Below are positions 5,216-64,000 of a DNA stretch of 64,000 bases, piece after piece (position 1 is the first letter of the stretch; each line of letters starts with the position of its first letter). Position numbers and translations under genes: made by a program. Below the pieces are notes generated by a model. The model was not told the origin of the DNA. It saw only the letters and a program-made list of their open reading frames with translations, and searched no databases. The stretch covers positions 104,577 through 168,576 of the forward strand of contig CAZIWN010000001.1 of NCBI GenBank assembly GCA_964543265.1, written 5' to 3'. Source of the stretch: an uncultured Candidatus Saccharibacteria bacterium. Its GTDB lineage: Bacteria; Patescibacteriota; Minisyncoccia; UBA6257; 1-14-0-10-40-38.

Positions 5216-6310
5216 ATGGCAGACGATTACTATAAAATTTTAGGCGTTGAAAAAAACGCTTCCGAAGAAGATATTAAGCGCGCTTATAGAAAAATGGCCC
5301 ACAAACATCACCCAGATAAATCTGGTGGCGATGAGGCCGCTTTTAAAAAGGTAAACGAGGCTTATCAAATTCTTTCTAATAAGGAAAAGCGTGCTCAATA
5401 CGATAAGTATGGTCGCGTTTTTGAGGGCGGCCAAGGGGGTGGTTTCAACGGCTTTCATGGTGGCAATCCTTTCGGCCAAGGAGGTTTTAATTTTGATTTC
5501 GGAAATATGGAAGATTTGGGCGATATGTTCGGCTCAATTTTCGAGGGTTTTGGAATGGGTGGCAAGCGCAAACAATATGAGCGCGGCGCCGATCTGGAAA
5601 TTCATCAAGAAATAGCTTTAAAAGAAGCCTATACGGGTATTGTTAAGAAACTTAAATTCAGCACAAAAATCAGTTGCGATAAATGTTCCGGAGTCGGACA
5701 CTTCCCAGAAAGCGGTTTCACTAAATGCGCCACCTGCGACGGCAAAGGAGAAATTAAAGAAACCAAGAGAACTTTCTTCGGTAATTTTGCCGAAGTTAGA
5801 AAATGCTCTAAATGTCGTGGGTTAGGCAAAATTCCTCATCGTCTCTGTTCTTCTTGTGAGGGTTTAGGTAGGCGAGTTGGAGAAAAAAATGTTGAGGTTA
5901 ATATTGGAGCCGGAATTGAGGATGGGCAGATTATAAAAGTAAATGGAGCCGGAGAATCTGGCGAGGCGGGAACTGACCCAGGGGACTTATATGTCAGAAT
6001 TAAGGTTTTAAAAGATAAAAAGTGGGAAAGACGAGGAGATGATCTTTTAGCTAGGCACGAAACAAGTTTAATAGATTTACTTATAACCAGATCTTTTGAG
6101 GTAGAAAATATTATAGGAGAAAAAATAAAATTAGAGCTTCCTGGAGGATTTAAGCTTGGAGATGAATTAGTTGTCTCTGGTGGTGGAATGCCCCGTCTAG
6201 GAGGATTTAGCAGGGGAAAGATGATTATTAAGCTAGAAGCTCAAATTCCAAAGAAATTAAATTCAAAAGCTAAAGAATTACTCGAACAACTTAAAAGAGA
6301 AGTAGATTAA
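5216..6310 (+). CDS. dnaJ: Chaperone DnaJ.
   Basis: J-domain with HPD (YYKILGV...HPDK), a G/F-rich linker and four CxxCxGxG zinc-finger repeats. Confidence 0.95.
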
Positions 6311-6317
6311 ATTTAAA

Positions 6318-6357
6318 ACCGCCTCCTGCATCTCGTTGGTGCAGTGGCGGTTTTTTG
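6318..6357 (+). terminator. Rho-independent terminator of the dnaK operon.
   Basis: Stem ACCGCC...GGCGGT followed by TTTTTT. Confidence 0.8.
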
Positions 6358-6363
6358 TTTGTA

Positions 6364-6483
6364 TCATCCCGTTGCAATAAACCACAGAATGATGAGAAAG
6401 ATGATGGTTGACCATCTCATGTTGAGGATCGAGCACTTCCATGGCTCAGGTTCGCTTACTGTTGGTTCTGGTCGCCTTTTCAT
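6364..6483 (-). CDS. 39-aa hydrophobic peptide (MKRRPEPTVSEPEPWKCSILNMRWSTIIFLIILWFIATG) in a GC-elevated segment.
   Basis: SD site AAGGGGG lies 6 nt upstream of the ATG. The C-terminal half is hydrophobic. It is absent from the 60-aa ORF track and I translated it by hand. Confidence 0.35.
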   Translation of the reverse strand: MKRRPEPTVSEPEPWKCSILNMRWSTIIFLIILWFIATG

Positions 6484-6522
6484 TTTTAACCCCCTTAATC
6501 TAATGAACTAATTTTATTATAT

Positions 6523-6585
6523 AAATTAAAACCACCCACAGCAACCGTAGTCGCTGGGGTGGTTCTGCGTCAGATTGTCTGACGC
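6523..6585 (-). terminator. Two tandem hairpins downstream of the islet lipoprotein gene: GCGTCAGA/TCTGACGC, then CCACCC...GGGTGG followed by a T-tract on the minus strand.
   Basis: Perfect 8-bp and 6-bp stems. The minus-strand sequence continues as TTTTAATTT. Confidence 0.6.
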
Positions 6586-6878
6586 TAGTTCGTCGCGGAG
6601 ATGGTCTCCGCGAGGCGCTCGAGGCCATCGTTCAGCTTCTCGAGGCCGTCGATGATCTTCTCCATCTCGATCGTCTGCTCGCGCATCCGCTCGAGATCGG
6701 TGTCGTCGCTCTTGACGACGTTCGGCAGCATGCGGTCGCGCATCTCGTCGTAGGCCTCCACCTTCTTCGTCGGCACCTCCTCCTTGGCGGGGGAGACGCA
6801 GCCGACGGACAGGAGGCAGAAGAAGGCGGCGATCCAGAACCCGTAGTTGAACGCGAGCATGTTTCGAAGCAAACGCAT
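6585..6878 (-). CDS. Small secreted or lipoprotein-like protein of 97 aa, GC-rich codons.
   Basis: Signal peptide with a lipobox-like LLSVGC. SD site CAAGGGAAAGGGAAAG is upstream of the ATG, and a consensus promoter lies upstream on the minus strand. Confidence 0.55.
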   Translation of the reverse strand: MRLLRNMLAFNYGFWIAAFFCLLSVGCVSPAKEEVPTKKVEAYDEMRDRMLPNVVKSDDTDLERMREQTIEMEKIIDGLEKLNDGLERLAETISATN

Positions 6879-6987
6879 TTTCTTCTTTCCCTTTCCCTTG
6901 GAAAGCTATTCTCTCGCAAGAAGGCGCTCGCCCTCATCGCAAAAGAATGCTTATTTGTTAATGTTCAATCTAACCCTAACCTTTGTA

Positions 6988-7017
6988 ATTATAGCACAAT
7001 ATATTGATATTTGTCAA
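6988..7017 (-). promoter_or_regulatory. Near-perfect sigma70 promoter with extended -10 (TTGACA-18-TGcTATAAT), copy A of the repeated promoter module.
   Basis: Read on the minus strand: CTATTGACAAATATCAATATATTGTGCTATAAT. Confidence 0.7.
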
Positions 7018-7020
7018 TAG

Positions 7021-7074
7021 ATAAGAAAGCCAATAAAATAATAGCCCCGGGTGCGCATTTGCGCATTCCGGGGC
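7021..7074 (-). terminator. Terminator of the 123-aa islet gene: GCCCCGG...CCGGGGC stem with an inner GTGCGCA/TGCGCAT palindrome, followed by a T-rich tract on the minus strand.
   Basis: Read from the sequence. Confidence 0.6.
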
Positions 7075-7080
7075 AGTAGT

Positions 7081-7452
7081 TCAGCTCGAAGCGGTAGCGG
7101 TGGCGGGGAACATCTCGCGAAGTTCCGCGCGAATCTCCTGGGCGAACCTGGTCATCGCCAAGCGCCATTCATCTTCATCGGTATGGATCCTGAGCTTTTT
7201 GGGCCAATACTTCGGGTCGCGCTTGGCCTTGGCCATGTCTGCAAGGTAGACCATCGCATCGAATCCTGTCTTGGCGTTGTTGTCTCCCGGCTTCAGTTCG
7301 AAGTCGAACGACATCTCGCCAATCCCATCGAAATCGGGCGCGGTCACGAAAGCAACGAGCTCTTCGTAGCTTCCAAGACCAAGCCATCCTTCCGGCGCCT
7401 GCTTCTTGCCGGGAAGAAAATGAAGGTCGTCAAGAAAAACATTCCTTTCCAT
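7081..7452 (-). CDS. Hypothetical 123-aa protein, GC-rich codons, unknown function.
   Basis: Clean ORF with SD site AAGGGA upstream of the ATG. Its own promoter (TTGACA-17-TAAACT at 7503-7531, minus strand) and its own terminator flank it. Composition is unlike that of the flanking genes. Confidence 0.5.
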   Translation of the reverse strand: MERNVFLDDLHFLPGKKQAPEGWLGLGSYEELVAFVTAPDFDGIGEMSFDFELKPGDNNAKTGFDAMVYLADMAKAKRDPKYWPKKLRIHTDEDEWRLAMTRFAQEIRAELREMFPATATASS

Positions 7453-7574
7453 TTTTCCCTTGTCTCCGCTTGGGTTTTTCTTTCCCTTAGGTGCTGACGT
7501 ATAGTTTAGCCCAAAACACCCAATTTGTCAAAGTTATATTAATCTACTATCTTATGCTAAAATTACATAAATAA

Positions 7575-7901
7575 ATGAGAAAAATATTATTATTTTCAAT
7601 AATTGGAATTATTTTAACTTCTTCTTTTGGATTTGCTTTAGCCAAAGAAGAAAGTCCAGAAGATATTCTTTTTATCGGTAAAATTACAAAAATCGGCCAA
7701 GATTCAATTAAATTCAAAACCGAAGACGGCGAAGAGTATTCTGCGCTTATAGACAGACTTACTCATCTCACAGATAAAAGCTACGACGAAATTATTTTTG
7801 AGAAATTTAAAAAAGGCCAAAATATTAGGGTTTGGGGTGTTCTAGCTACAGACGATTTTCATATATATTCTTCTTTTATCAGAAACCTTTCTCTTAAATA
7901 A
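7575..7901 (+). CDS. Small secreted protein (signal peptide), native AT-rich.
   Basis: N-terminal signal peptide MRKILLFSIIGIILTSSFGFALA. Confidence 0.5.
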   Translation: MRKILLFSIIGIILTSSFGFALAKEESPEDILFIGKITKIGQDSIKFKTEDGEEYSALIDRLTHLTDKSYDEIIFEKFKKGQNIRVWGVLATDDFHIYSSFIRNLSLK

Positions 7902-7922
7902 AAAATCCCCTTACGGGGATTT

Positions 7923-8558
7923 TTAAATCTTCAAGCAATCTTTTTCGGTATATTCTCCAACCCTAGTTCTAATTAAGGAATATAAATATCCTCCAGTTTT
8001 AAGTTCTGTTCCAAGATTTCTAGCAATAGAGCGTATGTAAACCCCTGGGCCGGTAGTGATCTGTAGTTTTAAAATAGGGAATTGATAAGCTAAGATTTTT
8101 ATATCTTTAACTAATACCTTTCTAGATTTTAATTCAGGGGTTTTTCCTTCGCGAGCATATTCATACAATTTTTTACCCCCAATCTTAATCGCGCTATAAA
8201 GTGGCGGAGTTTGATCAATTTCTCCAATAAATTTTTTTATAGCAAAATCAATTTCTCCACGAGTTGGTTCTTTTTCAAATTTTATTTCCGTTTTCATCCC
8301 TTGTGCGTCATCAGTCTCACTTTCTTCTCCAAGCTTAATTTCAGCAATATATTCTTTTTCCTTTTGAACTTCTGTTGAGAGTTTTTTAGTAAATTCTTTT
8401 CCCACAGCAATCACTAAAACACCCTCAGCGAGAGGGTCTAGCGTGCCAGCGTGTCCCACAATCTTTTCTCTGGCAATTCTGCGGACTTTAGCTACTATAT
8501 CGTGCGAAGTTGGTCCTTTCGGTTTCCAAACGCCCACAATTCCTTGTTTAATTAACAT
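7923..8558 (-). CDS. truB: tRNA pseudouridine(55) synthase TruB.
   Basis: Motif GHAGTLDPLAEGVLVIAVGK. Confidence 0.9.
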   Translation of the reverse strand: MLIKQGIVGVWKPKGPTSHDIVAKVRRIAREKIVGHAGTLDPLAEGVLVIAVGKEFTKKLSTEVQKEKEYIAEIKLGEESETDDAQGMKTEIKFEKEPTRGEIDFAIKKFIGEIDQTPPLYSAIKIGGKKLYEYAREGKTPELKSRKVLVKDIKILAYQFPILKLQITTGPGVYIRSIARNLGTELKTGGYLYSLIRTRVGEYTEKDCLKI

Positions 8559-8804: not shown

Positions 8805-8833
8805 TTGACAAAAACATGATTTATCTGTATTTT
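8805..8833 (+). promoter_or_regulatory. Candidate promoter TTGACA-17-TATTTT for the islet ORF 8912-9421.
   Basis: Consensus -35 element with a weak -10. Confidence 0.4.
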
Positions 8834-8911: not shown

Positions 8912-9421
8912 ATGCCGGCAACCGCAACAATGATCGAAGTCTTCCAGATTCTCGGATTGGAGATGATAAAGCGTCCAGTTTTTTCGGATCTGCTTCCAAA
9001 AACTGGATGCGTGCCAGATAAGAGAATCACGGAACAAGTAATGGGCGAGCCGTATTCTCTATCAGCTACAAGAGATGACCATTGGCGATCCGGAACAAGA
9101 GAAATCGCTCTAGTTGAACATCCGCCAGTTTGGTCAATGTCTACTGTCTGCGCGAATTCAGCCAAGCTCGGTCTGGGTCTATTGGATCCATACGATGTTC
9201 TATATTTCGCCATCAAGCATCCAGGGGTCCAAAGGTCTGGCCCAATCGCCTTCGTTCATCAGCCGCTTTTTCTAGGCGAGAACCGGAGAGGCCTTTTTGC
9301 TCTCGTTCTCGGTTTTGATGGGCAAGACAGAACCATTAATCTTGTCAGCTGGTTCGATACTTGTGATGCCGTTCCCGGAGTTCGCTACGCCCTTTTGAAG
9401 AGGCCAGAGAAGAAGAAGTAG
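8912..9421 (+). CDS. Hypothetical 169-aa protein, intermediate to high GC, unknown function.
   Basis: Strong SD site AAGGGGGAG lies 7 nt upstream of the ATG, and a terminator follows the ORF. Its composition is foreign to the host. Confidence 0.55.
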   Translation: MPATATMIEVFQILGLEMIKRPVFSDLLPKTGCVPDKRITEQVMGEPYSLSATRDDHWRSGTREIALVEHPPVWSMSTVCANSAKLGLGLLDPYDVLYFAIKHPGVQRSGPIAFVHQPLFLGENRRGLFALVLGFDGQDRTINLVSWFDTCDAVPGVRYALLKRPEKKK

Positions 9422-9433
9422 TTCAAGGTCTCA

Positions 9434-9474
9434 AAATCCCGCGCATGAGGTAAGTCCAAAGCGCGGGTTTTTTA
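9434..9474. terminator. Bidirectional terminator CCCGCGC...GCGCGGG flanked by A- and T-tracts.
   Basis: Sits between convergent genes. Confidence 0.75.
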
Positions 9475-9885
9475 ATTCAAAAACAAATACGCCCAAATTG
9501 CTACGAAAAGAATGGGCAAAAATAGGAGCCAATTCCATAAGCGGTTTTTTCCAATCAAAACATCTTTAACAGATCCTTCTTTATGTGGCCACATCTGAAA
9601 ATCTTCATATCCAAGTTCTTTTTCAATCGCCCCGATTCTTCTAATCCAGGCATCTCTCCAAAGTTTCTGTTTCCTTAATAAGAAAAACCAATAGAAAGAC
9701 AGGATTAATCCCGTAAGCTGGGCGATATGTAGATATTCTGGGCTGACTTTGCCGGCAAATATCGCCACAAAGATGGCGCTTTCAATCGCAAAGAAAAAAT
9801 TGTATAGGCGATACAGCCCATCTATTTCAGATCGAACTTGAGCGATAAACCGATCATACTGCTTCTCCAAAAATTCTTTATTCAT
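9472..9885 (-). CDS. Hypothetical membrane protein of 137 aa.
   Basis: Two to three TM helices. The start overlaps the upstream gene by ATGA. Confidence 0.5.
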   Translation of the reverse strand: MNKEFLEKQYDRFIAQVRSEIDGLYRLYNFFFAIESAIFVAIFAGKVSPEYLHIAQLTGLILSFYWFFLLRKQKLWRDAWIRRIGAIEKELGYEDFQMWPHKEGSVKDVLIGKNRLWNWLLFLPILFVAIWAYLFLN

Positions 9886-10463
9886 TTTACATCAGTTTTT
9901 CTTTCTACTTTTAGAAGGGAGCTTGGAAATTCAACCGTCAACTTAGCCAATAAGTTCATTGGATTTTTATTGTTTTTATCAAATCTAAACTGTTCGTCTT
10001 CAAAATCTAGGAAAATTTGAGAATAATCATCCTTGGTTTGCTTACCTTTTATTTTCTCTCCAAAATATATAACCGCCATTCTCTTGCCATTTTTTTCACC
10101 AAGTCTTGCTTGTACCCAATAATTATCATCTTCAGCTTCGTCTATTACTTTAGTTGGGGGTAAATCAAGAGAGTGTATTGTGTAATCTAATGTGAGATAT
10201 CCATGCCAAGCTTTTTCTACATCTTTTCTGATCTGTCGATGATCTTTTTTGCATTCGTATTTTTTATCACATTTAACACATAAATAGCTATTTAATTCTT
10301 TATCTAAAATGTTGTGGCAATTCTGGTTTGGACAAAGAGGATTATCCCCAATAAATGCGACGCCATTTGGAGCAATAACTGGCATCCACAAAACCCCATG
10401 ACTTTTATATAATCTTTTTTCCTCCATATTATCTATAACTTGTTGGGCGGTGAGGCCTATCAA
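9882..10463 (-). CDS. Hypothetical protein of 193 aa with Cys/His clusters (CPNQNCHN, CVKCDKKYEC).
   Basis: ORF in native AT-rich sequence. Translationally coupled to its neighbours. Confidence 0.5.
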   Translation of the reverse strand: MIGLTAQQVIDNMEEKRLYKSHGVLWMPVIAPNGVAFIGDNPLCPNQNCHNILDKELNSYLCVKCDKKYECKKDHRQIRKDVEKAWHGYLTLDYTIHSLDLPPTKVIDEAEDDNYWVQARLGEKNGKRMAVIYFGEKIKGKQTKDDYSQIFLDFEDEQFRFDKNNKNPMNLLAKLTVEFPSSLLKVERKTDVK

Positions 10464-10620
10464 GTAGTTCTCCGTTAGGATCTCTTAATATTGTTAAATT
10501 TCCACAATTAGGACAAATTTCTAGATTTACAGAAGATCCCTTATTAATTTCAATCTTTCCCCTAAAAGAACAGTTTTTACAAAAAACATATTCATTGTAA
10601 GTAGTTTTATTATCTGTCAT
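10429..10620 (-). CDS. Small zinc-ribbon protein of 63 aa (CxxC...CPNC).
   Basis: Two CxxC pairs. First gene of a three-gene minus-strand operon. Confidence 0.5.
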   Translation of the reverse strand: MTDNKTTYNEYVFCKNCSFRGKIEINKGSSVNLEICPNCGNLTILRDPNGELLDRPHRPTSYR

Positions 10621-14115: not shown

Positions 14116-14216
14116 TGTTGGATAAATCATTAAGCTAACCTTCTCCTGAGTTGGAGAAAAGGGTCTGCTGGTCACCCTAAAAGACTAGCAACGGTTCTTT
14201 GACAAGGGAGAGAGTC

Positions 14217-14417
14217 ATGAACAGTCACATGCACCCGCACGATCACGATCACGGCGTTCGCGCTTCCGACGATCGGCATCACGGTGTTCACGGCGACCAC
14301 AGTGATCACAGCGACAGTGGCCACAGGCACCACAGGGGTGCGCACGGTCACGATCACAAGGCGCACGGTCACCACCACGGGTCGGTCCACAAGCAGAAGA
14401 GGGGCGGCGCGCACTGA
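14217..14417 (+). CDS. Histidine-rich 66-aa peptide (about 38% His) with GC-rich codons; likely metal binding.
   Basis: SD site AAGGGAG lies 6 nt upstream of the ATG at 14217. The run is MNSHMHPHDHDHG...HGHDHKAHGHHHGSVH. A terminator follows. Confidence 0.55.
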   Translation: MNSHMHPHDHDHGVRASDDRHHGVHGDHSDHSDSGHRHHRGAHGHDHKAHGHHHGSVHKQKRGGAH

Positions 14418-14493
14418 TTTCGTATTCCGCGATTTGTCAGAGATGTCATCATGAAGTCTTTTCCAAGTCCGAAGTCCGGTATTCAATACGAAA

Positions 14494-25248: not shown

Positions 25249-25407
25249 ATGTTTGAAAATTTTAAAAATTGGTTTAAAGAAAATGAAAAGAAGATATTAT
25301 TTATCCTTATAATATTTCTAAGTATCACTTTAAGTTTAGGATTAGGATTCTTGCTTGGAAAAAAATCAAAAGTCACACCAATTATTATCGAGAAAAATTC
25401 AAATTAA
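25249..25407 (+). CDS. 52-aa single-TM peptide (MFENFKNWFKENEKKILFILIIFLSITLSLGLGFLLGKK...).
   Basis: Hand-translated small ORF in native AT-rich sequence, followed by a strong terminator. Confidence 0.35.
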   Translation: MFENFKNWFKENEKKILFILIIFLSITLSLGLGFLLGKKSKVTPIIIEKNSN

Positions 25408-25414
25408 ATTTTAA

Positions 25415-25456
25415 GTGCCACCTCCAGCGCTTGCGCTAAATAGGTGGCACTTTTTC
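25415..25456. terminator. Terminator GTGCCACCT...AGGTGGCAC followed by TTTTT; also T-rich on the minus strand.
   Basis: 9-bp perfect stem. Confidence 0.8.
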
Positions 25457-25466
25457 TTCCCCGTCT

Positions 25467-25688
25467 TCAGTTCAGGACGGTGACGAATCTCCCGATTGGT
25501 GTGAAGACTTGTTCACCGTCGACGATCTCGAGTTGTCCGAGAACTTCGCCACATCCCGGTACGGGGCAAGAAACGTTTGAGTGTTTGCAGGACGGGGCAG
25601 CGACCTTGCACTGGCCATACCTTCCTTCCCACTTGCAAACGCACCTGATCTGCGTCTCCGCACCGCACTCCTTCTGACTCATCGTCAT
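25467..25688 (-). CDS. Cys-rich 73-aa protein with 8 Cys (CGAETQIRCVCKWEGRYGQCKVAAPSCKHSNVSCPVPGCG) and GC-rich codons.
   Basis: SD site AGGAGG lies 9 nt upstream of the ATG at 25688. It is wedged between a terminator and the rnpB promoter. Confidence 0.5.
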   Translation of the reverse strand: MTMSQKECGAETQIRCVCKWEGRYGQCKVAAPSCKHSNVSCPVPGCGEVLGQLEIVDGEQVFTPIGRFVTVLN

Positions 25689-25761
25689 TTCTTTCCGCCT
25701 CCTGAAGCTGGATTCGAAACTAGACATAATAATAACAATAATTAAGCCAAAAAGGCAAGAT

Positions 25762-25790
25762 TTGTCTATTTTTAATATTTATGGTATACT
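25762..25790 (+). promoter_or_regulatory. rnpB promoter TTGTCT-17-TATACT.
   Basis: Spacing places the transcription start near 25797, which is the first nucleotide of the P1 helix. Confidence 0.55.
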
Positions 25791-25796
25791 TTTAAA

Positions 25797-26141
25797 GTCG
25801 CTTAGGTGATTACACGGCATCGCAAAAAAATGCCGTGAGGAAAGTCTGGACTCCTGTCTTGCGAGAAATCGCAAGTAAACGTACCGGTTAAAAGCCGGCT
25901 GGGTAATCCAAGAGGTGCGAAAAGTGACGCTCAAAGACGAAAGAATTTGAGAATCCGCTTGCGGATTAACCTTCTCTATAGTGAAGGAGAGGGGTGCAAC
26001 GGCTAAATCCTTACGAGGTGCAAGATCGTGCTCTAAATTAAAACTTAGAGAGAATCGCTTGAGCCTTAAAGTAATTTAGGGCCTAGATAAATTATCACCG
26101 CTTCGCCGAAAGGCGGAAACAGAATCCGGCTTATTAGCGAC
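25797..26141 (+). ncRNA. rnpB: RNase P RNA (bacterial type A).
   Basis: Conserved GAGGAAAGUCUGGACUCC (P4 5' strand), ACAGAAUCCGGCUUA (P4 3' strand) and a P1 pairing GTCGCT/AGCGAC, followed by a terminator. Confidence 0.85.
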
Positions 26142-26155
26142 AAAAAATATCAGAA

Positions 26156-26196: not shown

Positions 26197-26225
26197 TTGC
26201 TTTTATGACAACAATCTGTTATTAT
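26197..26225 (+). promoter_or_regulatory. Candidate promoter TTGCTT-17-TATTAT for the small membrane ORF.
   Basis: Read from the sequence. Confidence 0.4.
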
Positions 26226-26269
26226 GATTAACAGTTCTTCGGTTAAGGTCATTGGGAGGGAAGGCCTTG

Positions 26270-26458
26270 GTGGAATTCGGAAAGAGGCTTTGCTTCGCTC
26301 TGGTCTGGACTGTTTCCTGGGTTCTTCCGAAGGAATCTAGGGACGAGGAAGAAGAGGTGAGTGGTGTCTTGAAGCTTCTCCTCTTCGCCCTTGTCGGAGT
26401 TGGAACGGCCTTGGTTCTTCACTTCTATCGGATGAGGCAAAACTTCATCCAGATTTGA
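26270..26458 (+). CDS. Small two-TM membrane protein of 62 aa from the GTG start (68 aa if the TTG at 26252 is used), GC-rich.
   Basis: SD site GGGAGGGAAGG lies 5 nt upstream of the GTG. Two hydrophobic helices are separated by an acidic EEEE loop. A terminator follows. Confidence 0.45.
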   Translation: MEFGKRLCFALVWTVSWVLPKESRDEEEEVSGVLKLLLFALVGVGTALVLHFYRMRQNFIQI

Positions 26459-26477
26459 AAGAAGGCCAAGTGTCTCA

Positions 26478-26558
26478 AATGGCGTGCTGCCACCAAGTAG
26501 CGCGCCATTTTTTTTGTAAAAAAAGACCACCCATTACTCGCTCGCGAGCTAGGGTGGT
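26478..26558. terminator. Pair of convergent terminators sharing a central T8/A7 tract: ATGGCG...CGCCAT followed by T8 on the plus strand, and ACCACCC...GGGTGGT followed by a T-tract on the minus strand.
   Basis: Read from the sequence. Confidence 0.65.
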
Positions 26559-26570
26559 TTTCTGTCGCTG

Positions 26571-26789
26571 TTAACGAGGAGTAGTCGCTTCCCCGAACAG
26601 CATCGGTACTTCTATCAGATGCTTTTTATTGCATCCCTTCTTGCATTTCGGATGCGTCGAGCTCCCAAAATATGTATTGCCCTTTGGGATCTTACCACCG
26701 CACCCAGTGCAGGTACGATCCAAATGGGCAACATGATGTTCTGGAACCTCATCATCCTCTTCGTCGCTTCCGCCGTTGCCTCCACGCAT
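26571..26789 (-). CDS. Small zinc-ribbon protein of 72 aa from the ATG (CTGCGGKIPKGNTYFGSSTHPKCKKGC), acidic N-terminus.
   Basis: SD site GGGGAGGG lies upstream of the ATG. Its own promoter TTGAAA-17-TATAGT (26845-26873, minus strand) and its own terminator flank it. Confidence 0.5.
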   Translation of the reverse strand: MRGGNGGSDEEDDEVPEHHVAHLDRTCTGCGGKIPKGNTYFGSSTHPKCKKGCNKKHLIEVPMLFGEATTPR

Positions 26790-26876
26790 TGGGTTCGCCC
26801 TCCCCGTGAATGGATTGATGGTCAAGAAACGTGTACTGATATTTACTATAAAACATTCTTAAATAATTTTCAAAAT

Positions 26877-26920
26877 GAAAAGGCCCGGCTAGAACTATAC
26901 GTTCTATAACCGGACCTTTT
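26877..26920. terminator. Bidirectional terminator with a long imperfect stem GGCCCGGCTAGAAC tatac GTTCTATAACCGGACC, flanked by A4 and T4.
   Basis: Read from the sequence. Confidence 0.65.
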
Positions 26921-26946
26921 GCTCCGTCTTGCGGAGCCGTCGCCTT

Positions 26947-27153
26947 TCAGGCGGTGGCAACTGCGAGTTGCCGGCTCTCGGCGCGGAGCTCTGCGAGTTC
27001 TCCGCTCGAGAACAGATTGAGCAGTTCAGGCCACGTCGGCATCCTGCCGAGCTTCCGAGCCTTCCGCGCGATGATCTGCCGCATCGTGGGCACCGCGACC
27101 TCTTCTGAGCACTGATCGCAACCATTCGCGCAGCACTTGGATTCGCACGCCAT
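26947..27153 (-). CDS. Cys-rich 68-aa protein (N-terminal CESKCCANGCDQC, basic/helical C-terminus).
   Basis: A GGGGGG tract lies 7 nt upstream of the ATG. Copy B of the consensus promoter sits about 90 nt upstream. Confidence 0.5.
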   Translation of the reverse strand: MACESKCCANGCDQCSEEVAVPTMRQIIARKARKLGRMPTWPELLNLFSSGELAELRAESRQLAVATA

Positions 27154-27246
27154 CGTAGTTCCCCCCGAATGCCATTCTGATTTCGCCCTAAGGCTCGTCA
27201 GAGGACTTGTGAATGACTAGGGCCAATCCCTTATCATCACTCCTAT

Positions 27247-27276
27247 ATTATATCATACAATATATTAATTTGTCAA
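27247..27276 (-). promoter_or_regulatory. Near-perfect sigma70 promoter TTGACA-18-TGaTATAAT, copy B of the repeated promoter module.
   Basis: Read on the minus strand: CTATTGACAAATTAATATATTGTATGATATAAT. Confidence 0.7.
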
Positions 27277-27469
27277 TAGATAAAGCATAAAAAGCTAATA
27301 AAATAAGGATTTTAATATAAAAAATCTTAAAAATAAGGATTTTTTAACAACTCCAAATTTTCACCTCTTTACAAATTAAATTTACTTTGATATAATATGG
27401 AAATGAAGGTTGGACTCAAATCGTTATTAATAGTAGCGATGAGTCCAAAAAATAATTTAAAATAACTAT

Positions 27470-34502: not shown

Positions 34503-34532
34503 TTGACAATATATCTATTTAGGGAATAAAAT
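34503..34532 (+). promoter_or_regulatory. Consensus-like promoter TTGACA-18-TAAAAT at the start of a GC-rich islet.
   Basis: Read from the sequence. Confidence 0.6.
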
Positions 34533-34590
34533 TAAATTCCACGCGCTTTAAGAGGAAGCGCGCAGAAATCACTTGTCGAAGGGAGATTGA

Positions 34591-34821
34591 ATGGGTGCGA
34601 AGAGGGGATCTACGGTGAGGCAGGGATCTGTTGGCGGCGCCTCTTCTTCTACTGTCTTGAACCGACTGGCTCAACCCGACTGGAAGTTCAAGGGGGTTGA
34701 ACCGATTCGCGGGGCGATGAAGGGGTGCAGGTCTTGCACCTTCGATGGCGTGCCTCACGGTCAGTTCAGGGTGGGTGGTCCGAGGGGCGTCGTCTCCAGG
34801 TGTCCTTGCACGAACAGGTGA
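34591..34821 (+). CDS. Small 76-aa ORF (CRSC...CPC) in a GC-rich islet; coding status uncertain.
   Basis: SD site GAAGGGAG lies 6 nt upstream of the ATG. The Gly/Arg/Ser/Val-rich composition is typical of a random GC-rich translation. A 5' UTR hairpin CGCGCTT/AAGCGCG precedes it and a strong terminator follows. Confidence 0.35.
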   Translation: MGAKRGSTVRQGSVGGASSSTVLNRLAQPDWKFKGVEPIRGAMKGCRSCTFDGVPHGQFRVGGPRGVVSRCPCTNR

Positions 34822-34825
34822 TTTT

Positions 34826-34866
34826 TCAGCCCGGCTTTCCGAAAAGGAAGCCGGGCTGTATAATTT
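34826..34866 (+). terminator. Terminator CAGCCCGGCTTTCC gaaaa GGAAGCCGGGCTG followed by TATAATTTAT.
   Basis: 13-bp near-perfect stem. Confidence 0.8.
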
Positions 34867-34872
34867 ATATAA

Positions 34873-35256
34873 ATGAAAAAAGTTATGGTTTTCGGCGACT
34901 TCGATGGCCTTCATGAGGGTCATAGATTTTTTCTACGAAGCGCCAGAAAGTATGGAGATTATTTAATAGTGGCAGTTTCTCAAGATCATATTATCAAGCA
35001 TTTAAAAGGAGAATATCCAATAAAGAATTTTGCCGAACGCTTTGAGCACTTAGAAAATTATGACGATGTAAATCAAGTTGTCATTGGTGATCCGGAAAAC
35101 TCCCCAATTAATTTGATAAAAAAATATAATCCCGATATAGTTGTCTTATCTAAAAATCAAGAATTTTTACAAAACGAGATAGAAAGAAATTACGAAAATT
35201 TTTCTAAAAAAATTGAATTAAAGATAGTAGACGTTGGAGAAATAAAAATTTATTAA
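34873..35256 (+). CDS. Cytidylyltransferase-like (HxGH) nucleotidyltransferase domain protein (FMN adenylyltransferase-like).
   Basis: Motif VFGDFDGLHEGHRFFL. Confidence 0.55.
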   Translation: MKKVMVFGDFDGLHEGHRFFLRSARKYGDYLIVAVSQDHIIKHLKGEYPIKNFAERFEHLENYDDVNQVVIGDPENSPINLIKKYNPDIVVLSKNQEFLQNEIERNYENFSKKIELKIVDVGEIKIY

Positions 35257-38451: not shown

Positions 38452-38802
38452 TTAGCCCGTAGGCTCAGTATACGTAGCATCAAGAATAAAACTCTTCTTT
38501 TGATCAAAGGTTCCACTGAATTTATCATCTCCGCGCTTAACAGCAATTCTAACAGGAACCCACACGTGTCCGAATGTTGCATCTGCCTTGCGATACATCG
38601 TACAGGTTACCGAAACCGGAAGCAGGCCCTGAGCTGGTCCACGATTTTTAAGACTTAAGGTAAATGTTCTGATGTCCAGAAACCGCGTAGCTTCGATATC
38701 CATAGCATTCCACACGGAGTCATTATCTCCGTCAACCGTGCTAATTGCGATTTGCGTCATCCTGATTGCCAAAAGCACGCCAGCAGCCAAGCTCATTTTC
38801 AT
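38452..38802 (-). CDS. Secreted 116-aa protein (signal peptide MKMSLAAGVLLAIRMTQIAIS), GC-rich codons.
   Basis: SD site GGAG lies 6 nt upstream of the ATG at 38802. Copy C of the consensus promoter lies upstream. Confidence 0.5.
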   Translation of the reverse strand: MKMSLAAGVLLAIRMTQIAISTVDGDNDSVWNAMDIEATRFLDIRTFTLSLKNRGPAQGLLPVSVTCTMYRKADATFGHVWVPVRIAVKRGDDKFSGTFDQKKSFILDATYTEPTG

Positions 38803-38940
38803 CGGACATCTCCTTGTCAAAAGGGGATTCACTCCAGGGGTCAACCCAGAAAGTGGCAGCCATCACGGCAGCACCTTAGAAGCAAGAATAAGTCTTCTTT
38901 CCAAAGTGCCACCGTGACAACCTCTCAATATGCTTATAAA

Positions 38941-41389: not shown

Positions 41390-41707
41390 CAAGCGAGTTT
41401 AGAGGTCGCAAGTCAGCCTTCTGACGCCAAAGTTCTCAAGCTCCTTCTTCGCACTTCGCAAGCGTCTTTAGGTCTAAAAAATGGACTCTCGACCTTCATC
41501 GGGAGTTGACCTTCCGTTTTCACTGGTCACAAATCCAGTGACCGCTGGCTAACCGATTACGACCAGGTTATCCGACACGGTGAGTAATCTCTGGGACAAT
41601 TAGATGTAACTAACCAGGGAGCGGTAAGAAATTGCGCCTCAAAAACTCGCGCGGTGCCCCAAGCTTCGAGCAGGGTGAAAGACAACCCTGCTCGAAGCTA
41701 CTTTTTT
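41390..41707 (+). ncRNA. Candidate ncRNA of about 320 nt (GC about 50%), bounded by the consensus promoter and a 15-bp perfect hairpin terminator AGCTTCGAGCAGGGT...ACCCTGCTCGAAGCT followed by T6.
   Basis: No ORF longer than 28 aa on either strand and no SD site. Identity unknown; I found no match to tmRNA, SRP RNA or RNase P RNA motifs. Confidence 0.45.
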
Positions 41708-41723
41708 AAAATAAATATAAAAC

Positions 41724-45366: not shown

Positions 45367-45379
45367 TACTATATGTTAT

Positions 45380-45638
45380 CCTTATAAGCGTCGGTAGGGC
45401 TGACTTTGTCTTAGCTCTGATAAGTGGGACACTTTGTGCCCACAACGAAATTCGGCGAATAGAGAGGCGTGGTCGCAAGATCACAATAGCTCCTCTCGTC
45501 AGAGTACGAGCAAATCAGCCCTACCGACACCATTTCAAAAACAAGGCACACGGTGCTGCTGGTACCCCCCCGTACCAGACACCGCTGAGTCACTGGTCCG
45601 ACGCTACCCGCAAGGGCGCGCTCGGACCTATTTTTTTA
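45380..45638 (+). ncRNA. Candidate structured ncRNA of about 260 nt. A 14-bp long-range helix (45390-45403 pairing with 45515-45528) encloses 111 nt. Then a GGTAC-C6-GTACC hairpin and a terminator GTCCGA...TCGGAC followed by T7.
   Basis: No credible ORF. Helices read directly from the sequence. Possible promoter TTGTAT-18-TACTAT (45344-45373). Confidence 0.4.
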
Positions 45639-45649
45639 CAATCTTAATT

Positions 45650-45676
45650 AAAACCCCGCCAATCGGCGGGGTTTTC
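45650..45676. terminator. Bidirectional terminator AAAACCCCGCC aatc GGCGGGGTTTT; it also terminates typA.
   Basis: Read from the sequence. Confidence 0.8.
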
Positions 45677-47479
45677 TTATTCAGTTCTCTTTCTTAGCGC
45701 ATTCTTTAAAATTCTTTTTCTTAATCTTATAGATGTTGGAGTGGCTTCTACCAATTCATCATCTCCAATATACTCCAAGGCCTCTTCAAGGGTTAATTTT
45801 TTAGCTGGCACCAAATCATCAGTTACAGCATCTGTTTTTGCTCTAAAGTTAGTCAACTGTTTAGCTTTACAAACATTTACCACCAAATCTTCTGATTTTG
45901 CATTTTGTCCTACAACTTGTCCTTCATAAACATCTTCTGCTGGAGCCACAAACATAACTCCTCTTTCTTGAGAGCTTAATAGAGCATAGGCGGTAGATTT
46001 TCCGGCCTCATGTGCAACCAAGGATCCATGTGGGCTAGTTTCTAATCCCTGTATTTTTGGGAAATATCCAGCGCTTAAACTATTTATAATTCCCATACCT
46101 TTAGTTTCTATAAGTAATTGATTTCTAAATCCAATAAGGCCCCTGGTAGGAATAAAGAAGTGAAACGCCACAGTTCCATTATCAACTGCCATATTTTTCA
46201 TTTCTCCCTTACGTTCACTTATCTTTTGAATAACCATTCCCGAATATTTTTCTGGTGCTTCAATCCAAACATCTTCGAATGGCTCCATGGTTACTCCGTT
46301 TTCTTCATTGAAAATAACTTCTGGTCTCGAAACTTGAAGTTCGTATCCTTCGCGTCTCATTTTTTCAATTAAAATTGAAAGGTGAAGTTCTCCTCTTCCG
46401 CTTACAATAAATTCGTCTGCAGATTTACCCTGCACAACCTGTAGCGCAACATCGCTATCTAATTCTTTCTCTAATCTTTCTTTTAGGTTTCTTGAAGTGC
46501 AATATTCTCCCTCTCTGCCAGCAAAAGGGGACGTATTTACTCCAAAAATCATTTTAACCGTAGGTTTTTCTATAACGATTGGCTTCATTCCTTTTGGATT
46601 TTCAGCTTCAGAAATAGTGTCTCCAATCATAATATTATCCACTCCAGCCACAGCTCCGATATCTCCAGCCACAAGCTCTGGAACTTCAACTTTTCCAAGT
46701 CCCGAAAAGACCATTAAGTTTGTAAGCTTAACTTTAGAAATTTCTCCATTTCTATGAACTACAGAAATCATCTGCCCAGATTTCATCTTTCCAGCAGTCA
46801 CTCTTCCAATTCCAATTTTTCCCTTAAAGTTGTCATAAGCTAAGGAAACAACCATCATTTGTAGTGTTTCATTTATTTCTGCTTTAGGTGTTGGGATGTG
46901 TTTAATAATCTCTTCAATTAATGGTTTAACTCCAGTCATATTCTCAAGTTCTGGGGCCATTCCAGTCTTTCCCAATCTTCCAGAAGCATAAACGATAGGG
47001 AAATTAAGCTGATCGTTATTTGCTCCTAATTCTATAAATAATTCTATAGTTTTTTCTAAAACATAATTAATTCTTGCATTGGGTTTATCAATTTTATTTA
47101 TAACTACAATAATCTTATGTCCCATCGCCAATGCTTTCTTTAAAACGAATCTTGTTTGAGGCATTGGGCCTTCTTGAGCATCGATAAGTAAAAGCGAACC
47201 ATCAGCCATATTTAAAACGCGCTCAACTTCTCCTCCGAAGTCTGCGTGTCCAGGGGTGTCTATGATATTAATTTTATATTCACCATAACGAACAGAAGCA
47301 TTTTTAGAGAATATAGTAATTCCTCTTTCTCTTTCAATTTCGTTAAAGTCCATTATCATCGATCCACCCTCTCCAAGCCTTCCAAGATCAGTTTCGGATT
47401 GTCTCAAAAGCGCATCAACTAAAGTTGATTTTCCGTGGTCGACGTGAGCAATAATTGCGATATTTCTTAAGTTATTCAT
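45677..47479 (-). CDS. typA: Translational GTPase BipA/TypA.
   Basis: G1 motif AIIAHVDHGKSTLVD and an EF-G-like domain organisation. Confidence 0.95.
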   Translation of the reverse strand: MNNLRNIAIIAHVDHGKSTLVDALLRQSETDLGRLGEGGSMIMDFNEIERERGITIFSKNASVRYGEYKINIIDTPGHADFGGEVERVLNMADGSLLLIDAQEGPMPQTRFVLKKALAMGHKIIVVINKIDKPNARINYVLEKTIELFIELGANNDQLNFPIVYASGRLGKTGMAPELENMTGVKPLIEEIIKHIPTPKAEINETLQMMVVSLAYDNFKGKIGIGRVTAGKMKSGQMISVVHRNGEISKVKLTNLMVFSGLGKVEVPELVAGDIGAVAGVDNIMIGDTISEAENPKGMKPIVIEKPTVKMIFGVNTSPFAGREGEYCTSRNLKERLEKELDSDVALQVVQGKSADEFIVSGRGELHLSILIEKMRREGYELQVSRPEVIFNEENGVTMEPFEDVWIEAPEKYSGMVIQKISERKGEMKNMAVDNGTVAFHFFIPTRGLIGFRNQLLIETKGMGIINSLSAGYFPKIQGLETSPHGSLVAHEAGKSTAYALLSSQERGVMFVAPAEDVYEGQVVGQNAKSEDLVVNVCKAKQLTNFRAKTDAVTDDLVPAKKLTLEEALEYIGDDELVEATPTSIRLRKRILKNALRKRTE

Positions 47480-47554: not shown

Positions 47555-47599
47555 AATAAAACCCTTAATTTTGAGGGGGTAAAAGGGAGGGATTGATAG

Positions 47600-47791
47600 A
47601 TGAGCTCTTCTGGTTCTGCGACGGCTGCACCAATCATCAGGGGACGTTGCTTAGAGCTTCGCTCCAACGCCCTTTCTCGTCGGGCTAGAAACGTGAATCA
47701 TCGCGCATTGAGCGATCACGCTCGCACCTGCGCCAGCTGCAGGGACCACCTTGCATCGCTCGCCGCCAAGCAATCGAGCTCGGCGTCTTGA
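47600..47791 (+). CDS. Small 63-aa ORF with an HxxxCxxC (ZAS-like) motif (HARTCASC); coding status uncertain.
   Basis: SD site AAGGGAGGG lies 9 nt upstream of the ATG. The Arg/Ser/Ala-rich composition could be a random GC-rich translation. A terminator follows. Confidence 0.35.
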   Translation: MSSSGSATAAPIIRGRCLELRSNALSRRARNVNHRALSDHARTCASCRDHLASLAAKQSSSAS

Positions 47792-47796
47792 GCCAA

Positions 47797-47838
47797 ATAC
47801 TCCGATAGGCCACGGGTCTGTCGGAGTATTTTATTTTC
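47797..47838 (+). terminator. Terminator ATACTCCGA...TCGGAGTAT followed by TTTATTTT.
   Basis: Read from the sequence. Confidence 0.75.
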
Positions 47839-48940
47839 CTAAGCTTTCAATAATCGCAATCTCAAGCGGTATAAAAGAAAAAGGAGAATACCTCATTTCA
47901 GAATAAGCTCTAATTAACGATTTTAATAGATTAATTAAAAACTTTTCATCAGCGCTAATGGAAAGATTTTTTAATTTATTCAGTTCGGTAGTCGTAAATT
48001 CTTCCACAAATATTTTTTCAAAATCAGGATTTGCTTTCAGGGCTAAAATTTTTCTCAAAAAATGTATCAATTCTTTAGCTGAATCAACAATACTTATTCC
48101 GTTGTTATAAATCGCATTTACCGCCTCGATAGATTCTTTAGTTTTTTTATTTAATATCAACTCTGCTAAATTAGAAATCTTTTTAAATCCGGCTTTTCCT
48201 AAAATAGATTCAACCTTGTCGGCGGTAATTTTTTCTTCCAAACTTCCCATTTGGTCAAGTATAGATTCGGCGTCTCTAAATCCTCCTTCTGCGGTTTCTG
48301 CAATGAGTTCTAATGCCTCATCTTCTATGTCGATTTTTTCAGTTTTAGAGATGTCTTTTAATTTTTTAAATAATTTCTGAATAGGAATTTTCCTAAAATT
48401 AAATTTTTGGACACGCGACAAGATCGTTCCAGGAACTTTTTCATATTCCGTCGTAGCTAAAATAAATACAGCGTGAGCTGGTGGCTCTTCTAATGTCTTT
48501 AATAGCGCATTAAAAGCTTCTTTAGTTAACTGATGAACTTCGTCTATAATAAAAACCTTATATTTTGAAGATGTGGGGGATAGTTTAATAGATTCTTTTA
48601 AATCTCTAATTTCATCTATGCCCCTATTTGAAGCCGCATCCATTTCCACGACATCTAATGATTTTCCAGAATCGACATCTATACATTTAAGGCATTCATT
48701 GCAAGGCTCTCCTTTGGCGGCAAATTTTTTATCACTTTGGCGCGTTTCGCAATTTAATATTTTAGCCAAAATTCTAGCAACCGTCGTTTTTCCTGTTCCT
48801 CGACTGCCATAAAAAAGATAGGCATGCGAAATTCTGTCTTGAATTGCCGCGTTTTTTAATGTTTCAGTAATATGGTCTTCACCTAAAACATCTTCTAATT
48901 TTTTAGGTCTATATTTTCTATATAAAGCTCCTCCTTTCAC
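47831..48940 (-). CDS. dnaX: DNA polymerase III gamma/tau subunit (short form).
   Basis: Motifs GSRGTGKTT and a zinc module C..C..C. Confidence 0.9.
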   Translation of the reverse strand: MKGGALYRKYRPKKLEDVLGEDHITETLKNAAIQDRISHAYLFYGSRGTGKTTVARILAKILNCETRQSDKKFAAKGEPCNECLKCIDVDSGKSLDVVEMDAASNRGIDEIRDLKESIKLSPTSSKYKVFIIDEVHQLTKEAFNALLKTLEEPPAHAVFILATTEYEKVPGTILSRVQKFNFRKIPIQKLFKKLKDISKTEKIDIEDEALELIAETAEGGFRDAESILDQMGSLEEKITADKVESILGKAGFKKISNLAELILNKKTKESIEAVNAIYNNGISIVDSAKELIHFLRKILALKANPDFEKIFVEEFTTTELNKLKNLSISADEKFLINLLKSLIRAYSEMRYSPFSFIPLEIAIIESLGK

Positions 48941-62521: not shown

Positions 62522-63220
62522 TCAGTGATTCCAGTTTGTAGCGACTTCGCTACCAAACTGGTTTGCCAGACAATTCCTGAAGCGTTCGTCTTCCTCCTTT
62601 TCCCTCTTCAGGATGTCTCCAATTCCCTGCTGGTTCTCTTCGAGCTTCTCGAAGCTCATTCCGCAGAAGGCGCTTCTCGCCAATTCTTCGCAGTTGCGAA
62701 GCTTGGCAAAGCCGACGACGAGATCATTCAGCTGGGACGGCGACAAATCGTGGGGGTTGATCTCAGGCAAGGTCTCGAATAGATTCATCGCCATCTTTTG
62801 GAGATGATCGAGATCCATCTTGCCTTCTGGGTCCTGCAAGTAATTCCAGGATTGATGATCAACCAAGCTCTTCTTATGGAGCTTGGTAAGTTCGTGCTTG
62901 AGAAAATCGTTTTCCTTCTTCAGGGCTTCGATTTCCTCGTGAGCGCTTGTGAGCTCTTGGGTGAGCTCGAGGATGTTGCTCTGGCTCTCGCCAGTTTCGA
63001 TCTGAGGCTCGATTGCGCTCCTCTCGGCAACGATCTCCGTTTCCGGAGCCGTCGGCGCAAGTGTCACAGCCTGGTAGGCTTCGATCTTGGTAGGGTCATC
63101 TCCAACGAAGTTTTGTTGAGGGTGACAACCATAATCGACGCCGTGATTGTTGTTTCCTGAAATTGCGAACATGGCAACGCAGAAAACAACAAGCGCAATC
63201 AATCCGACAATTCGCTTCAT
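62522..63220 (-). CDS. Secreted coiled-coil protein of 232 aa with GC-rich codons.
   Basis: Signal or TM anchor MKRIVGLIALVVFCVAMFAISG, heptad-rich middle and SD site AAAGGAG upstream. Second gene of a two-gene minus-strand operon. Confidence 0.55.
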   Translation of the reverse strand: MKRIVGLIALVVFCVAMFAISGNNNHGVDYGCHPQQNFVGDDPTKIEAYQAVTLAPTAPETEIVAERSAIEPQIETGESQSNILELTQELTSAHEEIEALKKENDFLKHELTKLHKKSLVDHQSWNYLQDPEGKMDLDHLQKMAMNLFETLPEINPHDLSPSQLNDLVVGFAKLRNCEELARSAFCGMSFEKLEENQQGIGDILKREKEEDERFRNCLANQFGSEVATNWNH

Positions 63221-63249
63221 AGCTGACAGCTCCTTTGTCTTTCGAGTGA

Positions 63250-63295
63250 TCCCGGAAGGATCTCTTTCACTACTTAAGCCGAGATCCTTCCGGGA
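63250..63295 (-). promoter_or_regulatory. Perfect 15-bp intercistronic hairpin TCCCGGAAGGATCTC...GAGATCCTTCCGGGA with no U-tract.
   Basis: Sits between two co-oriented genes; possible processing, stability or attenuation element. Confidence 0.45.
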
Positions 63296-63311
63296 ATCTT
63301 CTCGGCTGCCG

Positions 63312-63851: not shown

Positions 63852-64000
63852 GCGTTCACTCCTGTGTTTTGGCCCGTTTTCGGTTCTTAAGCGAAATCGG
63901 GCTTAAGCCTACCTCCCCTTCTTTCGTCGCTGTTTTGTCAAGGTGCTACGAATCTAGGGCTACACACCCCAGTTTCATACTTAACATTACTCCTTTAACA

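Follow-up and report, generated by a model that had tools for sequence, protein, structure and literature searches.

A GC-rich islet beside rnpB in an AT-rich Paceibacterota genome probably encodes an overlooked zinc-ribbon-type micro-protein

Does a GC-rich patch pressed against the RNase P RNA gene of an AT-rich genome hold a real gene and, if so, what kind of protein would it encode? The question is raised by a stretch of 64,000 nucleotides (hereafter the window) from an uncultured Candidatus Saccharibacteria bacterium (contig CAZIWN010000001.1), which belongs to an AT-rich genome of 35% GC and contains about 12 GC-rich patches. The patch under study, at 25410-25735, adjoins rnpB. The features of the locus on which the analysis turns are the following.

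25249..25407, plus strand: native, AT-rich gene for a 52-aa membrane protein, taken from the ORF list; convergent neighbour of the small gene and left edge of a variable slot
25414..25451, both strands: compound hairpin AGTGCCACCT...AGGTGGCACT, flanked left and right by T-runs and folded on both strands
25467..25688, minus strand: coding sequence of a 73-aa zinc-ribbon-like protein, with ATG at 25688 and TGA at 25469..25467; translation checked
25698..25703, minus strand: Shine-Dalgarno site AGGAGG, read from the sequence, 9 nt upstream of the ATG
25729..25758, minus strand: predicted sigma-70-type promoter of the small gene (TTGCCT, 18-nt spacer, TG-TATTAT), from a promoter scan
25762..25790, plus strand: predicted rnpB promoter (TTGTCT, 17-nt spacer, TG-TATACT), from a promoter scan
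25797..26145, plus strand: rnpB, bacterial type A RNase P RNA (Rfam RF00010, E 2.6e-29, 95.5 bits, slightly below the gathering score of 100)

Translation of the minus-strand frame 25688..25467 gave exactly the 73-aa sequence quoted in the preliminary description of this DNA, and the AGGAGG site reported there lies at 25703..25698. The cysteine count had to be corrected, since the protein contains seven cysteines (positions 8, 16, 18, 27, 34, 41 and 46) and not eight, with the spacing C-x7-C-x-C-x8-C-x6-C-x6-C-x4-C instead of C-x6-C-x-C-x8-C-x6-C-x7-C-x3-C. The islet is no assembly chimera, because two independent Logan assemblies, DRR736439 (6994 bp) and SRR12487045 (3974 bp), match the window with 100% identity over the whole islet; the gene caller left the small ORF uncalled on both of these identical contigs. 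The neighbours of the small gene are genes for a PolB-like 3'-5' exonuclease, the 52-aa membrane protein, L27, L9 and an S41 peptidase, together with rnpB, and within about 5 kb there are also a formyltransferase, a deformylase, small Cys-rich ORFs and a He_PIG/Ig-like surface protein. The GC-rich block as a whole lies between two direct copies of a 12-nt sequence, CAAATTAAATTT, at 25400 and 27372; being AT-only and at chance level, this repeat was rejected as a target-site duplication. The stem sequence AGTGCCACC has no further copies as a repeated element within the window.

Relatives of the locus were retrieved with the neighbouring exonuclease as anchor. In Ca. Paceibacterota Baikal-deep-G188 (L003), whose exonuclease is 97% identical in protein and about 77% in DNA, an orthologue of 70 aa lies at 7792..8004 on the minus strand, between the 52-aa gene and rnpB, and shares 43-45% identity with the window protein (tblastn E 5.6e-13). 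The more distant L006, with an exonuclease 78% identical, carries three tandem paralogues (L006A, L006B and L006C). When 1.84 billion representative proteins were searched exhaustively with HMMER, a sole full-length match emerged, P0122 (E 3e-11), which sits on a 692-bp Hainich groundwater contig (L013) with the 5' end of rnpB on one flank and the hairpin and the 52-aa gene on the other. Altogether there are five homologues in three related Paceibacterota sequences, or six family members with that of the window; the family thus comes from four close relatives, and the claims of conservation rest on few sequences. The small gene is present only in the AT-rich sublineage (window, L003, L006 and L013) and is absent from seven relatives of 44-54% GC (L009, L011, L014, L016, L018, L019 and L020), the exonucleases of which are 71-75% identical.

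Wider searches returned little. A word-indexed search of 5.8 billion proteins, made with the window ORF and also with a two-sequence alignment, yielded no relatives, and neither the window ORF nor its L003 orthologue is itself among these 5.8 billion database proteins. Pattern scans with the back-translated protein or alignments gave no relatives in GTDB genomes, JGI metagenomes or IMG/VR either; tblastn against the INPHARED phages gave no match, and against the PLSDB plasmids a chance match alone (E 0.7). Several giant proteins scored in the HMMER search (P0121 and P0123-P0126, E down to 1.5e-11) and were rejected as homologues, as repeats inflate their scores: the match in P0123 is an 18-residue beta-hairpin motif, GxxxIVDGxxVFTP, repeated nine times in Cadherin_5/Big_9 domains, and the other four match only query residues 45-68, in 5-10 stretches each.

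Whether the ORF is more than chance cannot be judged from its length, which is not significant by itself because an open frame of at least 73 stop-free codons occurred in 64% of 2000 dinucleotide shuffles of 25455-25735; the opposite strand of the patch also carries an ORF, of 77 aa. The case for a real gene, so far as it can be read from sequence, is instead comparative. The sense frame is the only one without stops in all six homologous sequences, every indel in a three-way DNA alignment of the orthologues is a multiple of 3, and pN (0.35-0.45) stays below pS (0.65-0.78) by the Nei-Gojobori method. Cysteine, tryptophan, glycine and proline residues are invariant amid otherwise diverged sequence, and five of the six homologues have a ribosome-binding site and an ATG, the exception being L006C. 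The comparison shows the islet to be a protein-coding unit conserved in four related AT-rich Paceibacterota sequences.

The contrary reading, in which the frame is spurious and the patch is non-coding (a structured RNA or decaying foreign DNA) with few stops owing to its high GC, can draw on the shuffles, on the missing gene calls and database entries described above, and on two further observations, each of which has another explanation. The antisense +1 frame scores well between species, but this is a known artefact, arising because wobble positions face wobble positions, and the same frame holds stops in four of the six sequences. Folding of the whole islet also beats its shuffles (z = -3.85), but this excess is due to the terminator hairpin, as z-scores for the coding sequences alone range only from -0.38 to -1.14 in the six homologues. 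Rfam gave no match overlapping the coding region 25467-25688. A structured non-coding RNA was rejected on these weak CDS-only scores and the lack of an Rfam family match, and the single match that extends into the islet, to RF00004 (U2) at 25324-25494, was taken as chance, scoring low at 20.5 bits (gathering score 46, E 0.23). With the comparative evidence set beside these points, a spurious ORF appears very unlikely.

The islet also carries a full set of predicted expression signals. The preliminary description had placed a native terminator beside the small gene, and the long hairpin at 25414-25451 agrees with this; followed on each strand by T-runs, it lies 15 nt past the stop codon of the small ORF and can act as a bidirectional terminator common to the 52-aa gene on the plus strand and the small gene on the minus strand. 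It is missing from the output of a simple terminator scan, probably due to its inner stem, and the outer stem is kept in L003 and L013. At the other end, the promoter had been thought to overlap that of rnpB. In a consensus scan the predicted -35 box of the small gene is TTGCCT (25758..25753, minus strand) and that of rnpB is TTGTCT (25762..25767, plus strand); the two abut at a distance of 3 nt and do not overlap. The TTG of the small-gene -35 box and an AT-rich, -10-like hexamer align by eye in L003 and L013, with a similar arrangement in L006, and the predicted rnpB promoter stretch is nearly invariant across the window, L003 and L013. A second in-frame ATG upstream, at 25727, is an unlikely start codon because it lies inside or beside the -10 box. 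Purine-rich, SD-like sequences precede the ATG by 5-9 nt in L003, L013, L006A and L006B. In L006C the ATG has no ribosome-binding site; a TTG at 8827 could serve as start instead, and its overlap of 4 nt with the stop codon of L006B suggests translational coupling.

We then considered what kind of protein the gene would encode. The residues C16, C18, W20, G22, C27, C41, P42, C46 and L50 are invariant in all six members (M1 is also common), while C8, C34 and H36 are kept solely among the closest orthologues, and the family pattern reads [IV]-x-C-x(1-2)-C-x-W-x-G-x4-C-x(10-14)-CP-x(1-4)-C-x3-L. Two cysteine knuckles, C16/C18 and C41/C46, are thus invariant and lie about 22 residues apart in the window protein, in keeping with the zinc-ribbon or C(P)XCG class, in which two conserved knuckles are about 10-25 residues apart; in four of the six members the first knuckle takes the form C-x-C, an uncommon one among zinc ribbons. 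Since the invariant cysteines number five and not four, which of them would bind metal is uncertain. The preliminary description had suggested a disulfide-rich or metal-binding secreted peptide or a RiPP-like precursor; the conserved CP-x(1-4)-C and C-x(1-2)-C-x-W-x-G elements favour metal binding, and secretion is not supported. Its statement that the protein has no signal peptide is confirmed across the family, as no member has a signal peptide or a membrane segment. Five of the six members have a predicted pI of 5.0-6.5 and are acidic to neutral.

Scans of all members against Pfam, NCBIfam, PHROGs and PADLOC gave nothing above threshold. The best Pfam matches, PF20120 (E 0.0029) and PF07754 (E 0.047), were found in one member each and fell below the cut-off, and the best NCBIfam match, NF011481, reached 15.5 bits against a cut-off of 61. 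None of the curated zinc-ribbon families (HVO_2753_ZBP, Zn_Ribbon_TF, DZR and others) reached its profile cut-off. The window protein by itself gave no match in the PDB, and the family profile had no significant one there, with only weak CPxC-knuckle matches, to C2H2 fingers, HVO_2753-like proteins, S27ae, eS27 and the TFIIB ribbon. We also looked for a known housekeeping or ribosomal zinc ribbon, the identification that the preliminary description had set against its own proposal, and no family match emerged: no Pfam or NCBIfam family of a ribosomal zinc ribbon (L32, L33, L36, S14, L31 or similar) matched, and the S27ae and eS27 chains of the PDB scored only E 0.056-0.97. An AlphaFold2 model built from a two-sequence alignment has a short helix besides two beta-hairpins (strands 11-20, 23-32, 46-56 and 59-64), but its confidence is low (mean pLDDT 61.7, pTM 0.44), and a Foldseek search of this model against the PDB gave no match at E <= 0.001. 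A native AT-rich zinc ribbon in the window, at 10429..10620 (CxxCxFxG...CPxCG), has a similar layout; it was rejected as a relative, as the profile comparison gave merely 13% probability.

One-domain zinc-finger micro-proteins with C(P)XCG motifs have been described in Haloferax volcanii, namely HVO_2753 and its relatives (PMC6562870, PMC11241148), and Brz of Halobacterium is another one-domain zinc-finger micro-protein (PMC2253796). The family described here resembles them in a size below about 75 aa, a single domain built around cysteine knuckles, one CP-x-C(G) motif and a predicted cytoplasmic location, and also in that genes of this class are often missed by annotation and have regulatory or unknown functions. 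Its profile matches to an HVO_2753-like zinc-binding pocket are weak (PDB 9fhl_C, E 0.036; PF07754, at the E value given above), and none is significant. It differs in the first knuckle, where C-x-C or C-x2-C precedes an invariant W-x-G in place of CPxCG, in the fifth invariant cysteine, in its bacterial host (Paceibacterota), and in being a GC-rich, fast-evolving gene in an AT-rich genome. With housekeeping zinc ribbons (L32, L33, L36, S14, S27ae, eS27, TFIIB and Spt4) it shares two cysteine pairs about 20 residues apart, beta-hairpins as predicted at low confidence and the knuckle-level similarity to S27ae, eS27 and TFIIB noted above; unlike them, it has no significant match, is acidic and not basic, is confined to one lineage and varies in copy number. 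On its conserved residues, the small protein putatively represents a new family among the small zinc-finger and zinc-ribbon micro-proteins, a class already known.

The rate and composition of the gene set it apart from its surroundings. At the same divergence, dN is 0.47-0.69 for the small gene, while the adjacent exonuclease has 0.019 and the 52-aa gene 0.106, so that the small protein changes at about 25 times the rate of the neighbouring gene. The copy number ranges from 1 to 3 per genome. GC3 is 0.39-0.67 in the small genes and 0.21-0.34 in native genes, and it remains high in the orthologues though synonymous sites are saturated. An old transfer followed by amelioration is inadequate as an explanation, because drift towards AT should by then have erased the signal; the persistent GC3 may instead reflect nucleotide-level constraint or repeated gene replacement. 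The composition points to a foreign or otherwise atypical origin of the small gene.

Other GC-rich islets of the window share the GC3 bias, with values up to 0.95. The islet at 7081..7452 encodes a cREC_REC domain that also matches phrog_1479, a foreign-type gene, and several further GC-rich islets hold conserved small ORFs. A literature search on GC-rich islets in Patescibacteria found nothing relevant.

The interval occupied by the small gene differs in content among relatives. A gene of 51-59 aa lies directly downstream of the exonuclease gene in L003, L006, L009-L012, L014, L015 and L019, and thus also in GC-richer relatives without the small gene. In several of the seven relatives that have no small gene, 3D-domain, GIY-YIG-like or hypothetical genes follow the exonuclease and 52-aa genes; rnpB was located in L009 and L011, and there it lies downstream of these other genes. 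As the genes here vary among relatives, the interval from the 52-aa gene to rnpB is a slot of variable content.

The neighbourhood with rnpB is by comparison constant. The small gene is divergent from rnpB in all four genomes that have it (window, L003, L006 and L013), with the promoters back to back and the -35 boxes 1-3 nt apart, so that the two genes probably share an AT-rich control region. In L006, rnpB and the small gene are inverted relative to their flanks and the pair is still intact. The most economical reading is that the link is positional and not functional: the genomes are closely related and the two genes stand only about 110 nt apart, and descent can thus explain the conserved pairing.

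The reading that we prefer, with a probability of about 0.6, is that the islet is a complete transcription unit missed by gene callers, which would encode an accessory, cytoplasmic micro-protein of zinc-ribbon type. The unit would consist of its own predicted promoter, the ribosome-binding site, the 73-codon ORF and the shared terminator. Judging from the conserved residues, one Zn2+ may be held by the pairs C16/C18 (C-x1-2-C) and C41/C46 (CP-x1-4-C), with C27, W20, G22 and L50 completing a small core of two beta-hairpins and the C-terminal 20 or so residues forming a variable tail. Its charge, evolutionary rate and copy number suggest that the protein acts by binding a partner, more likely a protein than an RNA because the family is mostly acidic. 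Its role would be that of a dispensable, lineage-specific accessory modulator and not of a housekeeping factor, and the gene would be a foreign or atypical one occupying the variable slot between the 52-aa gene and rnpB.

A reading that overlaps with this one, and adds the stronger claim of a role in an arms race, takes the product for a fast-evolving conflict protein (an anti-defence protein, an antitoxin-like inhibitor or a modulator from a phage or mobile element) that was acquired horizontally, is under diversifying selection and blocks a target protein. Much of what is peculiar to the gene would suit such a role: a dN far above that of the neighbouring genes, the tandem triplication in L006, the foreign-like GC3, the restriction to a narrow lineage, a slot with variable gene content, and the presence in the window of another GC islet with a phage-associated family. 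Its rate, however, comes with pN below pS and no overall signal of positive selection; PADLOC, PHROGs, the INPHARED phages, the PLSDB plasmids and IMG/VR gave no match, no partner gene such as a toxin, nuclease or integrase adjoins it, and it keeps the same locus in four diverged genomes, unlike a mobile element, all of which makes this role doubtful. The cysteines, which make up about 10% of the residues, could also indicate a secreted disulfide-rich peptide, a RiPP precursor, both of which had been suggested in the preliminary description, or a metallothionein-like metal buffer, the last with a sub-cut-off match of one member to the Pfam metallothionein family (PF00131, 14.7 bits against a cut-off of 23, E 0.034). 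Against secretion stands the lack of a signal peptide, hydrophobic N-terminus or membrane segment in any member, and disulfide pairing is disfavoured by the odd number of invariant cysteines (five) and the lack of conservation of C8 and C34. A check of the neighbouring genes over about 5 kb revealed no RiPP-type modification enzyme, transporter or peptidase, and just five conserved cysteines together with an invariant aromatic tryptophan are a misfit for a metallothionein. The CP-x-C knuckle is a usual mark of structural zinc sites, and we regard this whole group of proposals as highly improbable.

A functional tie to RNase P, with the protein assisting RNase P RNA as a cofactor or chaperone peculiar to this lineage, or acting as a regulator at the shared promoter, would account for the divergent arrangement in all four genomes that have the gene and for the intact pair in L006. 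Archaeal and eukaryal RNase P does contain a zinc-ribbon subunit, Rpp21, which binds the RNase P RNA, is basic and is universally conserved in its domain. The present protein is likewise a small, predicted zinc-ribbon protein, here encoded beside the RNase P RNA gene, but it has no detectable similarity to Rpp21, and neither RnpA nor Rpp21 was recovered for it in Pfam or the PDB. The family is acidic (five of six members within the pI range given above, unlike basic RNase P proteins), sporadic and fast-evolving, and a rate of change about 25 times that of its neighbour together with a variable copy number is unexpected for a core subunit. Relatives with an equally typical rnpB lack the small gene, and linkage by descent explains the synteny. 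A literature search for links between CPR bacteria, RNase P and zinc ribbons found nothing relevant. A tie to RNase P is on these grounds unlikely, although the survival of the pair in the L006 inversion lends it some weight. In its boldest form, the protein and RNase P RNA would make up a functional unit specific to the sublineage, as an extra cofactor or assembly factor or as a regulator at the shared promoter; we consider this quite unlikely, but if true it would explain how the divergent pair has stayed intact through inversion and triplication.

For the preferred reading, that of an accessory zinc-ribbon-type micro-protein, the immediate outcome is a new small-protein family absent from Pfam, NCBIfam, PHROGs, PADLOC and the PDB, of which about 15 billion predicted proteins yielded just one of the six members. 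As an otherwise orphan zinc-ribbon micro-protein it is of modest general interest; of specialist interest are its high GC3 despite saturated synonymous divergence and its fixed divergent pairing with rnpB. The wider point concerns annotation, as GC-rich small genes in AT-rich CPR genomes are systematically missed by gene callers, and such uncalled genes may conceal part of the accessory proteome that seems 'missing' from these bacteria with reduced genomes.

The small gene in the GC-rich patch divergent from rnpB encodes a 73-aa zinc-ribbon-like protein, the islet protein, and a look-alike of native, AT-rich composition is present in the window:

10429..10620, minus strand, zinc-ribbon gene, 63 aa, CKNCSFRG...CPNCG

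The layout of this protein is the same as that of the islet protein, and a profile comparison of the two (hhalign) gave a probability of 13%, a similarity that is not significant. Residues 51-68 of the islet protein form the C-terminal hairpin GQLEIVDGEQVFTPIGRF, which resembles a motif repeated in the Cadherin_5/Big_9 domains of giant surface proteins (P0121, P0123-P0126) returned by the exhaustive HMMER search, with 10 of the 18 residues identical to P0123. The E-value of 1.5e-11 obtained for P0121 in that search arose because the motif repeats inflated the score.

Two further small Cys-rich ORFs, each with a diverged counterpart in the close relative L003, were observed in the next GC-rich islet beyond rnpB (window 26225-27249):

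26571..26825, minus strand, small Cys-rich ORF 1
26947..27153, minus strand, small Cys-rich ORF 2
L003 8930..9151 and 9315..9530, counterparts of both ORFs

ORF 1 shares 36% identity with its L003 counterpart, and its Cys pattern, C-x2-C...x18...C-x3-C, looks like a TRASH/zf-FCS metal-binding finger. ORF 2 has a Cys cluster at its start, and RQLAVATA stands at the end of both the window and the L003 versions. The gene finder called only ORF 1, on only one contig, and never called ORF 2. An exact 12-nt direct repeat, CAAATTAAATTT (window 25400-25411 and 27372-27383), flanks the entire GC-rich block of small gene, rnpB and next islet; it consists of A/T bases only and probably arose by chance.

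About a dozen GC-rich patches (300-1450 nt, 47-56% GC) are scattered through the AT-rich genome across the whole window, among them:

9071-9475
14138-14487
34529-34878
38524-38935
41402-41715
45377-45691
47561-47859
62531-63981

Comparison of the window's GC-rich patches with Rfam gave no family matches, and most of them contain orphan ORFs with raised GC3. ORFs in two islets, 6513-7477 and the one around 14199..14417, are as follows:

7081..7452, minus strand, cREC_REC domain protein (PF20274, E 1.8e-9; phrog_1479, E 6e-11)
6585..6878, minus strand, putative lipoprotein adjoining the cREC_REC ORF
14199..14417, plus strand, His/Asp-rich ORF, 72 aa

The putative lipoprotein ORF of islet 6513-7477 has a GC3 of 0.95, a composition clearly foreign to a 35% GC genome. 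His and Asp are extremely abundant in the 72-aa ORF (e.g. HPHDHDHG and HGHDHKAHGHHHG), which may be a metal binder or a compositional artefact, and a 111-aa ORF overlaps it on the opposite strand.

The rnpB copies of the clade, with their scores against RNaseP_bact_a, are:

window 25797-26145, 95.5 bits
L003 8112-8480, 83.1 bits
L009 9403-9880, 88.1 bits, ~130 nt longer than the other copies
L011 9123-9467, 75.8 bits

These scores lie under the Rfam gathering threshold of 100 bits, and the clade's rnpB is therefore missed by default Rfam annotation.

The architecture of the small gene/rnpB locus differs between close relatives. In L003, an additional 669-aa surface-protein gene (5520..7529) lies between the PolB-like exonuclease gene and the 52-aa membrane-protein gene. 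In L006 (7916-9057) the rnpB-small gene pair is inverted, and three copies of the small gene form what looks like an operon that carries a terminator of its own. Seven relatives without the small gene (L009, L011, L014, L016, L018, L019 and L020) have an exonuclease that is 71-75% identical, with a GC3 of 0.44-0.75, and 44-54% GC, whereas the sublineage of the window, L003 and L006 has 35-38% GC and a GC3 of ~0.31-0.34. One Paceibacterota clade spans this large compositional shift.
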